The notes under the pieces: model-generated
The model's input: only the letters and a program-made list of their open reading frames with translations
What the model was told of the DNA's origin: nothing
The model's database searches: none
Assembly: GCA_019058315.1 (NCBI GenBank)
Contig: JAHPZH010000002.1
Coordinates: 224,001 to 288,000 of the forward strand
From: Candidatus Helarchaeota archaeon
Lineage (GTDB): Archaea; Asgardarchaeota; Lokiarchaeia; Helarchaeales; RDOG01
Direction of reading: 5' to 3'
Length of the DNA: 64,000 bases
Translations under genes and position numbers: made by a program
Shown: positions 7,584-20,866 of the stretch, in pieces
Layout of the letters: every line of letters begins with the position of its first letter
Position numbering within the stretch: position 1 is the stretch's first letter

Positions 7584-8576
7584 TTAAGTGAGAACTTCAA
7601 ATTTCATGCCTTGATTATTAACATTAGTTATAAAAACTTTTCCTCCTCCATTTTTATTCAAAAATTCTTCCGTTTTATGTTCTAATTTCTTTGCATTTTC
7701 TACCCCTTCTACTAAGCCGTAAGTTGTGCATCCAAAAGAGCTAATTCCACTTCCATATGCGCCATTATCAGCCATAAATTGAATTAAATCTTTAATTATT
7801 GTGGGTTGTATATCAACTTCTTGTTTTTTAAAACCTACATTCTGTAATTCAGATAGACCTCTTCCAAATACTTCTATATCTTCTTCACGAAGCCCTGGCA
7901 GTAACACCATTAGAATTAACCTGGAAACGGTCCCTACTTCTTCTTTAGATATAGGGCATGTATTTTGAAACACATTAATTTCTTTTAAACCCTCAATCTC
8001 ATCATAGATGTTTGGGAGGGCGATAACAAATTGCCAGTTTTCAGGGACTGTGTAATGAAGTAAAACTGGTGGAGGAGGTGCATTAGATGCTCTAGAAGGT
8101 AAAAAGGAATTTTTTTGCTTATTTTTTCCAAAAGTATGTCCTGCATCAAGAATAAATCCGCCCTTTTGGAATACATTGACCCCTATACCGGAAGTTCCCC
8201 CTCTTTTAACAATTTTAGCTAATTCATATACAGTTTTTCTTTTATTAAATAAATAATTTACAGCAAATGCAACAGCGAGAGACATTTGCGTTTTTGACCC
8301 TAATCCTACATGTCTTGGAATAGATGATGTTAAATTAAATTCAATTCCACCATCTATTTCTAAATGTTTGAAAACATTTTTAGCAATATCATAAATTAAT
8401 TCACTATTGTATCCATTATTAACAATAATATCATTATTCGGTAAGGAGCTAGCTTCTAAGACTATTTTCGGGTAGTTTAGAGCGACCCCTACTCCCCCAT
8501 CTACCCTTCCTAAATCTCCACTTAAATCGATTAATGCAAAATGCAATCTACTGGGAGTTATTATTCTAATTTTCAA
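7584..8576 (-). CDS. mptG: Beta-ribofuranosylaminobenzene 5'-phosphate synthase (GHMP family)
   Basis: TPSRLHF, GRVDGGVG, HVGLGSKTQ, RGGTSGIG, GGFILDAGH, SSFG. Confidence 0.9.
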   Translation of the reverse strand: MKIRIITPSRLHFALIDLSGDLGRVDGGVGVALNYPKIVLEASSLPNNDIIVNNGYNSELIYDIAKNVFKHLEIDGGIEFNLTSSIPRHVGLGSKTQMSLAVAFAVNYLFNKRKTVYELAKIVKRGGTSGIGVNVFQKGGFILDAGHTFGKNKQKNSFLPSRASNAPPPPVLLHYTVPENWQFVIALPNIYDEIEGLKEINVFQNTCPISKEEVGTVSRLILMVLLPGLREEDIEVFGRGLSELQNVGFKKQEVDIQPTIIKDLIQFMADNGAYGSGISSFGCTTYGLVEGVENAKKLEHKTEEFLNKNGGGKVFITNVNNQGMKFEVLT

Positions 8577-16642: not shown

Positions 16643-16984
16643 ATTAATTACCTATTTTAAATAATATCTCATTAAATTCAAATCTAATTTAACGGTAAAA
16701 CATTATAATTATTTATTCTTCATATTAAAGGATTTGTAAATGAGATTGGATGTAAAATATATACATAATTAAAAGAAAATGTAAAACTCTGTTCTTCATT
16801 CTAGTTTTATTTTTTAAAGAAAAAATAATCCAAAATCCAATTTCTAACTTTTTTATTAAAAAATATCTTAATTTGGTAAAACTATATTCATATTACATTT
16901 TTAGATCATTTTATTTATTTGTAGAAGTATTATAATCCAAGATAAAAAAAATCATTAAAATATGGATAATTACTGGTGAATATT

Positions 16985-17398
16985 ATGGATTTCCAAGTAA
17001 CATCTTTAGCAGGTGAAGCTATTTCGGAAATGTCATCTGGTTTGATACAAAAGAATTTAACAGAACACCCAGTGGTTTCAATCTATTTTAAAGGTACAAC
17101 TTCTGCCATATGAGGTACAGGAGGTTCGGATACCGTTCCAGCATATCTTAAATTAACAATTGACGTTGTGTCCCAAGAAGATCTTGAAAAAGAAGAGGAA
17201 AAATTCACACGTCAAGGTGATTACCAAGAAGTTCCAATTTTTACTCAAGATTTAGCTCTGAATTACCTTGTTGATCCTACGATAATTGATGCCAAAAAAT
17301 TCTATCACTTCAGCGAATTATTCATTCCAAACGCACCGGTCTTAATCGAGAATACTTTTTGGAAAGTAGATGAAGTTAAAAAAGGCGGTGGCTGTTAG
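16985..17398 (+). CDS. Candidate selenoprotein, 137 aa, Sec at codon 43 (TGA 17111-17113), C-terminal GGGC; possibly HesB/IscA-like fold
   Basis: ATG at 16985 after a GGTGA SD; 42 sense codons, TGA, then the same frame continues into track ORF 17168-17398; SECIS-like hairpin right after the TAG. Confidence 0.75.
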
Positions 17399-17399
17399 A

Positions 17400-17471
17400 A
17401 AGGTCGATGGATGAAATTTTTTTGTAAATATTAGAAAAAAATTGACACAGTTTATGCAAACTGCCGACCTT
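17400..17471 (+). promoter_or_regulatory. Eukaryote-type SECIS element in 3' UTR
   Basis: AUGA(17411-14)-N11-AAA(17426-28)...GA(17444-45); stem AAUUUUUUU/AAAAAAAUU; basal helix AAGGUCG/CGACCUU. Confidence 0.75.
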
Positions 17472-17629: not shown

Positions 17630-19168
17630 ATGGCTCAAGATCTCGTATGTGTTATTGATGCTGGAACAACTGGTTTAAGAACAATGATTTTTGATAGTAA
17701 TGGAAACGAAATTGATAGAGCTTATCAAGAATACAAAAGTTATTTTCCAAAACCTGCTTGGGTAGAACAAGATGCAAATGATTGGTGGCAAGCGGTTTGT
17801 AACACATCAAATAAGGTGCTAAAAAAAATCAATACCTCTGATATTGTTGGAATAAGCGTTACAAACCAAAGAGAGACAATTGTTCCAGTAGATGAAGCCG
17901 GAAATCCTTTAAGAAAAGCTTTGGTTTGGCAAGATCGTCGAACTATACCTGAGTGTAATATTATTCGAGAAGTTATAGGGGAAGATGAAATATATAGGAT
18001 TACTGGATTAACAATAGACCCATATTTTTCATCATCCAAGATTATTCATATAAAAAATCAACAACCAGATATCTTTTCAAAGACCTCCAAATTCCTTCTT
18101 GTCCATGATTATATTGAAATGAAATTAAGCGGAAAATTTGTGACTGATTGGTCAAATGCCTCTAGGACTATGTTATTTGATATTGAAAAGCACGAATGGA
18201 GCAAAAAAATTTGTGATAAATTAGAGATACCTATTGAAAAGATGCCCCAAACGTATCCTTCTGGGGAGATCATTGGCGAAATCACAAAAATCGCTGCTAA
18301 ACAAACGGGATTCATAGAAGGAACTCCAATAATAAGCGGTGGGGGAGATCAACAATTAGGTGCATTAGGTTTAGGTGTTATTAAATCTGGACAAATATCT
18401 TGTACAACTGGAACAGGGACGTTTATATTAGCCTTTTTAAATCAACCACTACGTGATCCTCAAAAAAGAGTTCTTTGTAGCTGTCATGCAGTCCCTAATA
18501 CATGGGTTATGGAAGCCAGCATATTCACTACTGGTTCGGTTTATAGATGGTTTCGTGATCAATTCAGTCAATATGAAAAAGACCTTGCTAAACGACAAAA
18601 TAAAGATCCTTATGAACTTCTAAATGAAGAAGCTATAAAGTCTCCCGTAGGTTCTAATGGAATCATTTTAATACCTCATTTTGCAGGAGCTGGGGCACCA
18701 TATTGGAATCCTTATAGCCGTGGTATTATTGCAGGGCTTGCCCTTGGACATACTAGAAATGATCTAATAAGAGCCATTATGGAAAGTATATGCTTTGAAA
18801 TTAGAAAAAATATTGATGTTATGAGACAATTAAATATTCAGGTAAATGAGATCCGGTTAACTGGAGGAATGACTAGGAGCAATACATTTAATGAAATACA
18901 AGCCGATGTTTACGGGATTCCTGTATTACATAGCAAGACTGAAGAAGCAACTGCACTAGGAGCCGCGATGTTAATTTTAAAGGGGACTAAAATTTATAAG
19001 AACTATGACGAAATCGCAAAAAAAGTAGTTAAAATTAGCGCAACCAAAAAACCTAATAATATAAATCATAAAAAATATTCAAAAATCTTCGAAATATCGA
19101 AAAAAATTTATGAAATATTCCAAACCAATAATTTATACAAGGATTTTTATGATATGGGGGATTATTAA
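17630..19168 (+). CDS. glpK: FGGY-family kinase, glycerol kinase-like
   Basis: DAGTT, TNQRET, WQDRRT, DPYFS, TDWSNASRTMLF, GDQQ, GAGAPYW; next to G3PDH operon. Confidence 0.72.
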   Translation: MAQDLVCVIDAGTTGLRTMIFDSNGNEIDRAYQEYKSYFPKPAWVEQDANDWWQAVCNTSNKVLKKINTSDIVGISVTNQRETIVPVDEAGNPLRKALVWQDRRTIPECNIIREVIGEDEIYRITGLTIDPYFSSSKIIHIKNQQPDIFSKTSKFLLVHDYIEMKLSGKFVTDWSNASRTMLFDIEKHEWSKKICDKLEIPIEKMPQTYPSGEIIGEITKIAAKQTGFIEGTPIISGGGDQQLGALGLGVIKSGQISCTTGTGTFILAFLNQPLRDPQKRVLCSCHAVPNTWVMEASIFTTGSVYRWFRDQFSQYEKDLAKRQNKDPYELLNEEAIKSPVGSNGIILIPHFAGAGAPYWNPYSRGIIAGLALGHTRNDLIRAIMESICFEIRKNIDVMRQLNIQVNEIRLTGGMTRSNTFNEIQADVYGIPVLHSKTEEATALGAAMLILKGTKIYKNYDEIAKKVVKISATKKPNNINHKKYSKIFEISKKIYEIFQTNNLYKDFYDMGDY

Positions 19169-19198: not shown

Positions 19199-20149
19199 TT
19201 GAGCCAAAAATGGTTTAAGATTCTGTTTTTAGGTCTTGATAATGCCGGGAAGACTTCATTTCTACTTTCATTGGAGAATAAATATAGTCATTTACATTCT
19301 TTAAGACCAACTAAAGGACTTTATAAGTACGAATATAAAATACTCGGTTTTGAAATCAATCTCCTCGATTTTGGAGGACAAAAGATATATAGAGAGGAGT
19401 TTTTTAAAAAACCAGAAAATTATATTGGAACTGACTTACTATTCTTCGTTATTGACATTCAAGATAGAAGAAGATTTGCAGAAAATGGGGAATTTTTTGA
19501 AAAATTACTTGATGAATTTGAAACTAATGATGTTAAACCTAATATAATTATCTGTTTTCATAAGCTTGATCCCGACCTTATGACAGATCCCGAATCTTAT
19601 ATTCATGATAATATTCAAATCGCAGAAAGATTATTTAAATCTAAAAGTAACGGACGGGAATTGGAATTTTTTCAAACAACTATTTACGATTATTCAAGTT
19701 TGGCTCGAGCTTTTTCTTCAGGGTTATTGAAAATCATTAAAGATTTTAAAAAAGTAACCGAAACTATCTTTGCTGATTTTATGAACAAAACTAATGCAAA
19801 TGGTGTCTGTCTTCTTAGTGAAAATGCTCTTATTTTATCAGATCTCTATGATAAAAAGTCTGAAGCCCAAGAAATTATCGAAATTATTGGTACAAATATG
19901 GCCCAAATGTCTCAAAAACTAATAGAATATAATCATGGGATACCAGAATCTATTGAAATAAAAATGAAAGGGTGGTCTTTTTTTAGAACTTTTGAACTCG
20001 AGGATAAGGACGTAAAAGAGGGGGGTATGAAGAGATTTTACCTAATAATTTATTCAGAGAATCCTAAAAATTTTGATAAAATAAATGAATTATTAACTAA
20101 TTTTACTCTAACAGTTGCAAATACTTTGAAAAATTTTCTAAAGGAGTAA
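19199..20149 (+). CDS. Rag/Gtr-like small GTPase with C-terminal roadblock/longin-like domain
   Basis: GLDNAGKTS, RPT, DFGGQ, HKLD (HKxD-type G4); C-terminal alpha/beta domain. Confidence 0.75.
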   Translation: MSQKWFKILFLGLDNAGKTSFLLSLENKYSHLHSLRPTKGLYKYEYKILGFEINLLDFGGQKIYREEFFKKPENYIGTDLLFFVIDIQDRRRFAENGEFFEKLLDEFETNDVKPNIIICFHKLDPDLMTDPESYIHDNIQIAERLFKSKSNGRELEFFQTTIYDYSSLARAFSSGLLKIIKDFKKVTETIFADFMNKTNANGVCLLSENALILSDLYDKKSEAQEIIEIIGTNMAQMSQKLIEYNHGIPESIEIKMKGWSFFRTFELEDKDVKEGGMKRFYLIIYSENPKNFDKINELLTNFTLTVANTLKNFLKE

Positions 20150-20152
20150 AAA

Positions 20153-20866
20153 TTGGATTTTCCTAAAATTCGAATTCTTTTATTTCAACGTGGAATGTAT
20201 GGAGAAAGGGTAGAAGAAACAATTAATAAATATGGGAAAAAATTACAAATATCCAAAATTTTTAAAATACCTAAAGAGCTACCAGATATTATTGAGGAAC
20301 CAGAAACCTATATTCCTGATGAAATATTCAAAAATATTGATTTAATTATTTCTTATTCTCTACATGCAGATTTATCACAATATATAGTAGAAAAAGCAAA
20401 AAATAACGGTATTAAAGTAGTGATTATGCCTGGAGAAGACCCATCCTTTAGTCAATTGGGGGCTAGAAGACAACTTTTTGAAATTGCAGGAGACGAAGTT
20501 AATATTTTTGGTCCTGAAGTTACATGTGCTTTAAAACCAGTACAAGATAATGAAATTATTTCACTATTTTGTTCTGAATTAGGACAACCAGAATTTAAAA
20601 TAGAAACTAAAGACGGAAAAATTAGTAAAGTTGAAGTAATTCGGGGGGCTCCATGTGGTGCAACGTGGTATGTTGCAAAGGAGATTATAGGAGAATCGAT
20701 CAAAGAAGCTCCTAGAAAAGCAGCATTACTTACACAATATTATTGCCGAGCGTCAAGAGGATATGATATTATCGGAGGGGAGGGAAAAATTCATAAAGCT
20801 GGAAAAATTACTATGAAAGCATTTGAGAAAGCAATTGAAGAAACATTGAATAATAAAAAAGATTAA
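20153..20866 (+). CDS. DUF166 family protein
   Basis: LHADL, TCAL, EVIRGAPCGATW, YCRA, IHKAG. Confidence 0.75.
   Translation: MDFPKIRILLFQRGMYGERVEETINKYGKKLQISKIFKIPKELPDIIEEPETYIPDEIFKNIDLIISYSLHADLSQYIVEKAKNNGIKVVIMPGEDPSFSQLGARRQLFEIAGDEVNIFGPEVTCALKPVQDNEIISLFCSELGQPEFKIETKDGKISKVEVIRGAPCGATWYVAKEIIGESIKEAPRKAALLTQYYCRASRGYDIIGGEGKIHKAGKITMKAFEKAIEETLNNKKD

Follow-up and report, generated by a model that had tools for sequence, protein, structure and literature searches.

The window, by which we mean the whole 64,000-nucleotide stretch of Candidatus Helarchaeota DNA analysed here, lies on contig C5 of a 5.8-Mb genome that is 94% complete and 6.6% contaminated. On its forward strand, which carries all features of the gene described below, positions 16985-17398 form a frame of 137 codons that ends in TAG (17396-17398) and contains a single internal TGA, codon 43 (17111-17113). 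A Shine-Dalgarno-like GGTGA at 16975-16979 stands 5 nt upstream of the ATG, with a GGTGA-like word at similar spacing in most homologues. The context of codon 43 is S-A-I-U-G-T-G-G, and the sole cysteine of the protein is its final residue (Cys137, 17393-17395). Standard open reading frame calling reports just a 76-aa piece from 17168, which is the 3' part of this frame, and database annotation renders the genes of the subfamily as one 42-aa piece and one 70-86-aa piece. The initial annotation of this locus, made from the sequence by itself, had extended the 76-aa piece to a longer frame opened by a Shine-Dalgarno sequence and ATG at 16985, with the UGA as its only interruption and cysteine only as its last residue, and each of these readings was verified. 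Existing annotation almost certainly splits one gene at the UGA, the product being one 137-residue selenocysteine protein.

The gene is located between a divergent cluster, encoding a GlpA-like FAD oxidoreductase, a pyridine-nucleotide oxidoreductase and a DUF1667 protein, and a gene for an FGGY kinase (17630-19168). The kinase had been taken for a glycerol kinase, an identification that its scores do not bear out: it scores best as a xylulokinase (401 bits against a cut-off of 380) and misses the GlpK cut-off (348 against 590). A gene for a small Arf/Rag-like GTPase with a C-terminal extension (19199-20149) immediately follows that of the kinase, a syntenic arrangement shared by relatives, and at 20153-20866 there is a DUF166 protein, kin of the bacterial (seleno)protein DfsP (NF041372, 143 bits, cut-off 200), with no UGA. 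Sigma-70 and terminator scans, whose models are unsuited to archaea, gave results at chance level.

A three-helix SECIS element follows the stop codon at 17400-17471, its basal helix formed by 17400-17406 pairing with 17465-17471. It encloses a core at 17411-17445 that follows the lokiSECIS definition of PMC4989117, with AUGA at 17411-17414, a 9-bp stem (17415-17423/17435-17443), an 11-nt loop ending in AG (17424-17434) and GA at 17444-17445, and a 3' side hairpin with a (U)GCAA tip at 17448-17463. The hairpin 3' of the stop folds at -17.7 kcal/mol (z = -3.81), and 0 of 200 shuffles were as stable. Across ten copies, 96% of pair cells hold standard pairs, both sides have changed at four pairs, and the side hairpin shows a compensatory A-U/G-C change; the covariation score was matched by 0 of 500 shuffles, a test inflated by the relatedness of the copies, and slid controls were 39-63% paired. 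The strict lokiSECIS pattern occurs at seven sites in the genome and at none in simulated controls, and two of the seven sites lie behind UGA-containing ORFs, namely the window gene and one paralogue. The eukaryote-like, SECIS-like hairpin that had been noticed 3' of the gene is thus upheld by both the lokiSECIS core and the covariation. Rfam gave no meaningful match to the window SECIS, and a covariance model of the family's SECIS elements recovered mainly itself.

With the published lokiSECIS, or Asgard type I eSECIS-like, elements (PMC4989117, PMC11227280) the window element shares the AUGA, the 9-bp stem, the 11-nt loop ending in AG, the GA and the location near the stop; it differs in a loop that opens with GU ahead of the adenines. 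The conserved 3' side hairpin, which creates a three-way junction, is also absent from the published lokiSECIS descriptions consulted. The SelD, VhuU and MvhD SECIS elements of this genome likewise have three helices and a 3' side hairpin that ends in GCAA, and this shared hairpin offers a testable lead on the recognition of a kink-turn SECIS in the absence of SBP2. For the short VhuU selenoprotein (G000 C5:1207483-1207636, L043; G000 is the genome of the window), the UGA stop and the GUGA of the SECIS core overlap, an arrangement already described for Lokiarchaeia. One copy of the window gene (L005) keeps the TGA although its SECIS (L005:531-600) is overlapped in the 3' part by a convergent gene for an alpha/beta-hydrolase and has neither the side hairpin nor the 3' basal-helix strand, a point against the selenoprotein reading. 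In another copy (L038), the end codon is a TGA (8247-8249) approximately 15 nt ahead of the SECIS core.

Protein searches provided 13 distinct subfamily copies, including that of the window, and the DNA of the copies was inspected at codon 43. This codon is TGA in 12 of the 13 (55-89% identical) and TAA or TAG in none, at the same time as the true stop codons vary between TAG, TAA and TGA. Since 73% of the genome's long ORFs stop at TAA and 14.6% (320 ORFs) at TGA, an ordinary stop at codon 43 should have tended to change to TAA over time. Only six codons, the TGA among them, are invariant across the 10 copies compared, in which synonymous sites are 24-75% diverged. Values of dN/dS against the window, which are rough pairwise estimates and not independent, are 0.20-0.56 upstream of the TGA and 0.09-0.35 downstream; the counts are not independent either, as the homologues are close kin. 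Homology on both sides of the UGA, which the initial annotation had named as a check, is therefore found, with dN/dS below 1 on either side. The downstream pieces annotated in databases have a start codon that differs from copy to copy.

The exception at codon 43 is L006:577-972, which has GAG (Glu) and a changed loop. This copy is a tandem duplicate, and the second copy, L006:1270-1514, located 300 nt downstream and cut off by the contig end, keeps the TGA, such that the sole loss of the UGA is confined to a redundant duplicate. L006:577-972 also has the highest dN/dS of the set (0.69 and 0.39) and a SECIS with a weakened basal helix, folding at -10.5 kcal/mol versus about -17. Genomes named 'Candidatus Helarchaeota' supplied two syntenic homologues, and a further subfamily copy (L155) lies on a 3.5-kb contig of an assembly labelled Hodarchaeota (GCA_048887025.1), is syntenic with the Helarchaeota loci and is possibly misbinned. 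A summed match to P0008, a eukaryotic pyrin-domain repeat protein, was spurious and was not counted as a homologue. Narrow queries returned no close copy in 60 genomes, in 399 other genomes or among the genome contigs; these blanks mean only that no close copy was found, as the relative in genome G004 was missed there and found by the wider profile described below.

The genome encodes the selenocysteine machinery. SelB (C5:124363; 287 bits), SepSecS (C5:125922; 400 bits) and tRNA-Sec (C5:127141; 63.5 bits, anticodon TCA) form a cluster on C5, the contig that also carries the window, all above their cut-offs, and SelD, also above its cut-off, is found on contig C11 and carries an in-frame TGA of its own. 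Of the components listed initially for confirmation, only the kinase PSTK is represented less securely, by a PSTK-like gene with an E value of 1e-49 that scores 170 bits against a curated cut-off of 290.5. The identification of tRNA-Sec is based on Rfam RF01852, and an intron-containing 'SeC' call by ARAGORN on contig C3 was set aside. The same contig holds a dense one-strand array of approximately 19 tRNA-like genes, several of them called with introns (G000 C3:627504-631783). With a conserved TGA, a lokiSECIS and the machinery all present, the proposal that this UGA is decoded as selenocysteine is very strongly favoured: by conservation and by analogy to the published Lokiarchaeota system, we are highly confident that UGA43 is read in this way. 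The lokiSECIS, 298 nt downstream, would recruit the genome's SelB and Sec-tRNA-Sec for this reading.

Beyond the subfamily, the window protein matches PF01521 only in Pfam, and weakly (E 0.12); for P0005, a natural homologue, PF01521 is the best Pfam match (E 0.022), with both matches below the cut-off. When 400 genomes of the phylum were searched with PF01521, weak matches with an in-frame TGA appeared in related genomes, and one of these, the G004 relative, is a clear homologue, with 27% identity over 121 residues and the U in the same loop. Behind the gene for this closest outside relative (L070/L102 1693-1790) there is a three-helix element with an A-rich loop and a GCAA side hairpin and no AUGA/GA core. 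The wider profile found the family in at least 52 of the 400 genomes and recovered four members in the genome of the window. In addition to the window gene, these are a G-U-G-G paralogue with a SECIS (G000 C3:786506, L110), an S-U-C paralogue with a SECIS (G000 C2:186048-186365, L111) and a Cys-only paralogue behind a gene resembling a heavy-metal P-type ATPase (G000 C5:1280143, L112). Among the UGA members inspected, most are followed by a SECIS-like element.

In a 37-row alignment of the wider family, the codon-43 column holds Sec or Cys in 36 rows. Cys-for-Sec homologues, also suggested initially as a check, account for 12 of the rows, with Cys in this same column, and the close subfamily yielded none. 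When the subfamily is left out of the profile, the window gene is still recovered in its genome with an E value of 1.8e-8, HHalign pairs the subfamily profile with that of the rest of the family at 97.9%, and in the tree the subfamily is one well-supported group (96/93), with deeper branches mostly unresolved. Judged by its sequence, then, the window gene belongs, as a divergent branch, to a widespread family of Asgard (seleno)proteins that includes Cys-only members. The subfamily is set apart by an insertion of approximately 7 residues after the Sec, giving a longer hairpin, and by its distal position: 18 of the 27 non-subfamily rows have a distal Cys there (N-T-C and similar), and the subfamily has Phe or Tyr. 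The terminal Cys is present in 6 of the 11 UGA copies whose 3' end is intact; the other 5 are without any Cys. The conserved pair of Sec43 and C-terminal Cys that had been envisaged is as such not supported. A feature-based search placed PF01521 and CC/Se clusters at 0.78-0.88, which we treat as a lead only.

The fold was addressed with a model not of the window protein but of P0005, which is 66% identical to it and is a Sec-less duplicate. An earlier model from 7 sequences (pLDDT 55.7), for which fold searches gave no matches, was discarded; AlphaFold with a deep alignment yielded a P0005 model with a pLDDT of 83.9. In VIA-align, this model matched seven IscA-like chains, SufA, IscA, DsrR and two Lactobacillus PF01521 proteins among them, at Z 6.8-8.9, with the next match at 2.8. 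The individual comparisons gave Z 8.9 and an rmsd of 3.0 over 91 residues for SufA (2d2a), Z 8.7 and 3.3 over 95 residues for IscA (1r94), and Z 8.1 for DsrR. The first eleven rows of a Foldseek search were the same IscA-type proteins, none of them at E 0.001. The HesB/IscA-like layout proposed initially, and the structure prediction suggested for checking it, thus agree, with the P0005 model matching only IscA/SufA/DsrR-type folds, and it is very highly probable that the product adopts the predicted IscA/HesB fold. In the model, hairpin strands span residues 29-44 and 47-63 with the codon-43 position at the tip, and the C-terminal tail is disordered. When the family profile is compared to Aquifex IscA (1NWB), the Sec/Cys falls on the Cys of the G-G-C-S-G loop, a weak match (E 0.11), and Sec43 probably occupies the place of this first Cys of IscA.

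Among known proteins, the CC/Se family (NF041239, PF28096) likewise groups small proteins resembling IscA that carry Sec or Cys in a hairpin loop. Its NF041239 model matches 15 of 37 members of the wider family at E values up to 1, the best being 2.4e-7 and the nearest outside relative (G004) scoring 18.6 bits, and PF28096 is present in two relatives; these weak matches bear out the kinship to CC/Se proteins that had been suspected. NF041239 (cut-off 40 bits) gave no match to any of three subfamily copies scanned singly, nor to the window locus in the genome search. The window protein differs from CC/Se proteins in having neither a CC nor a CxxU motif (motif per PMC13188914), in extending approximately 40 residues beyond the 91-position model and in having an archaeal 3' SECIS. 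The HesB-like selenoprotein of Methanococcales and bacteria (TIGR01911) is similar in being an archaeal IscA/HesB-superfamily selenoprotein with one Sec in a like loop. It is distinguished by its U-x-G-P motif, compared to U-G-T-G in the window, and by the methanogen-type SECIS of its Methanococcales form, compared to the eukaryote-like SECIS here; TIGR01911 (cut-off 66.35 bits) had no match in the genome of the window. The A-type carriers IscA, SufA and ErpA (PF01521, TIGR00049) would share the predicted fold at approximately 14% identity, whereas the window protein has no C-terminal C-x-C, Sec in place of Cys, and a longer hairpin and first helix. The CC/Se and HesB-like selenoproteins are the closest kin of the family, and the subfamily is a member of neither as curated.

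Two alternatives concern the reading of the UGA itself. Were codon 43 a true stop, the locus would contain two short genes, a pseudogene or a sequencing error, as the separate 42-aa and 70-86-aa pieces in databases would suggest. However, the same TGA recurs in 12 sequences from independent assemblies with no replacement by the predominant TAA or by TAG, the downstream pieces lack a common start codon, both halves contribute to the predicted fold and the SECIS has been conserved, making a true stop very improbable. A reassignment of UGA to Trp or Gly in this organism might be read from the W at position 43 in four database homologues, but this W is the gene caller's own reading, flagged 'with_TGA=W'; TGA terminates the 320 long ORFs counted above, and distant relatives have Cys, not Trp, in the column. 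Reassignment is largely refuted and retains next to no probability. With UGA43 read as selenocysteine, we consider it likely that the locus as a whole represents a real, probably monocistronic, selenoprotein gene with an IscA/HesB fold, for which the role of a lone-selenol adaptor is the most likely one.

As for that role, the Sec would lie at the tip of a beta-hairpin extended by about 7 residues. With the IscA C-x-C tail absent and the distal Cys of the wider family replaced, Sec is the only conserved reactive residue, and since it is also predicted to be exposed on the hairpin tip we favour, tentatively and at somewhat less than even odds, a lone-selenol redox or ligand adaptor as the most likely mode of action. 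The exposed selenolate would attack a disulfide or persulfide of a partner protein, or briefly bind a metal or cluster ligand, and the Sec would then be released by a Cys of the partner or, where present, the flexible terminal Cys. Precedents are DsrR, an IscA-fold protein that, to judge by the title of Grimm 2010 as cited in PMC11406059, does without cluster binding, and the Cys-less A-type domains of NfuA (PMC10301553).

Alternatively, the selenoprotein could be an A-type Fe-S or iron carrier, for instance a dimer that holds a cluster by two Sec and two terminal Cys and matures the [2Fe-2S] domain of the neighbouring GlpA-like protein. The IscA/SufA fold would suit such a carrier, as would the distal Cys of the non-subfamily rows. 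In the window and in L002, L006, L039 and L041, the divergent neighbour is a GlpA-like gene that encodes a BFD-type [2Fe-2S] domain, the kinase is downstream in 7 loci, and the G001 relative lies, by inspection, behind an acetyl-CoA synthase-like operon. However, A-type carriers have three conserved Cys, a loop Cys and a C-terminal C-x-C (PMC10301553), compared to one Sec and zero or one Cys in the subfamily, so that a self-sufficient three-Cys Fe-S carrier is unlikely. The gene order also speaks against this carrier. The arrangement of GlpA-like gene, selenoprotein and kinase recurs in close relatives, and the rest of the block, unrelated genes included, is equally syntenic, so that the synteny reflects kinship. 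In the four other genomes of the order with usable flanks (G001, G002, G004 and G006), the GlpA-like and kinase orthologues are apart and have no family member within 1.5 kb, two loci (L005 and L040) have different neighbours, and other family members, including the G000 paralogues, lie in unrelated neighbourhoods. In L038, a D12-class DNA methyltransferase and two small ORFs (L038:5675-7358) stand between the gene and the GlpA-like cluster. The role in glycerol metabolism that had been drawn from position is as such not supported, the arrangement being confined to the lineage; a functional link to the neighbours is possible and weakly supported, and we regard the carrier as quite unlikely. 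An unlikely reading as well, if a little less so, is that of a selenium store, sensor or DsrR-like regulator whose synthesis reports selenium supply and which is not a catalyst. DsrR is among the top structural matches; the methanogen HesB-like selenoprotein has no clear function, its disruption having left nitrogen fixation unimpaired (PMC11097638), and the three Sec and one Cys paralogues of this genome lie in unrelated surroundings. Against this, one Sec per 137 residues makes a poor store. The lone-selenol adaptor stays our preferred reading. More speculatively, this could be an overlooked Asgard radiation of IscA-fold selenoproteins in which the present branch was reduced to a single-Sec carrier or redox switch serving the adjacent flavin/[2Fe-2S] glycerol-phosphate oxidoreductase. 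We give this little credence; if true, it would give selenium a part in the heterotrophic carbon metabolism of an archaeon.

HesB-like selenoproteins and lokiSECIS elements are already known kinds. Published accounts list 11 archaeal selenoprotein families, HesB-like with motif UxGP among them (PMC13188914), and seven Asgard families (PMC11227280; Huang 2024), the latter from searches that used known families as queries. The term 'HesB' is absent from the main texts of Huang 2024, Mariotti 2016, Sun 2021 and a 2024 wetland paper (PMC11227280, PMC4989117, PMC9723677, PMC11291895), and the open literature, as distinct from subscription papers and supplements, yielded no Asgard HesB or IscA selenoprotein. 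Within the open literature searched, the family thus appears unpublished for Asgard archaea, in agreement with the initial suggestion of an undescribed Asgard selenoprotein family. Because it occurs in so many genomes of the phylum and is annotated as fragments, the Asgard selenoproteome is undercounted. The subfamily in addition provides a natural experiment, with one Sec lacking a conserved partner Cys alongside a Sec-less duplicate whose SECIS basal helix has decayed. One UGA-bearing member of the wider family (L120, G002:C139:55854-56210) has a TAA after 55 codons and would be a pseudogene or an assembly error.
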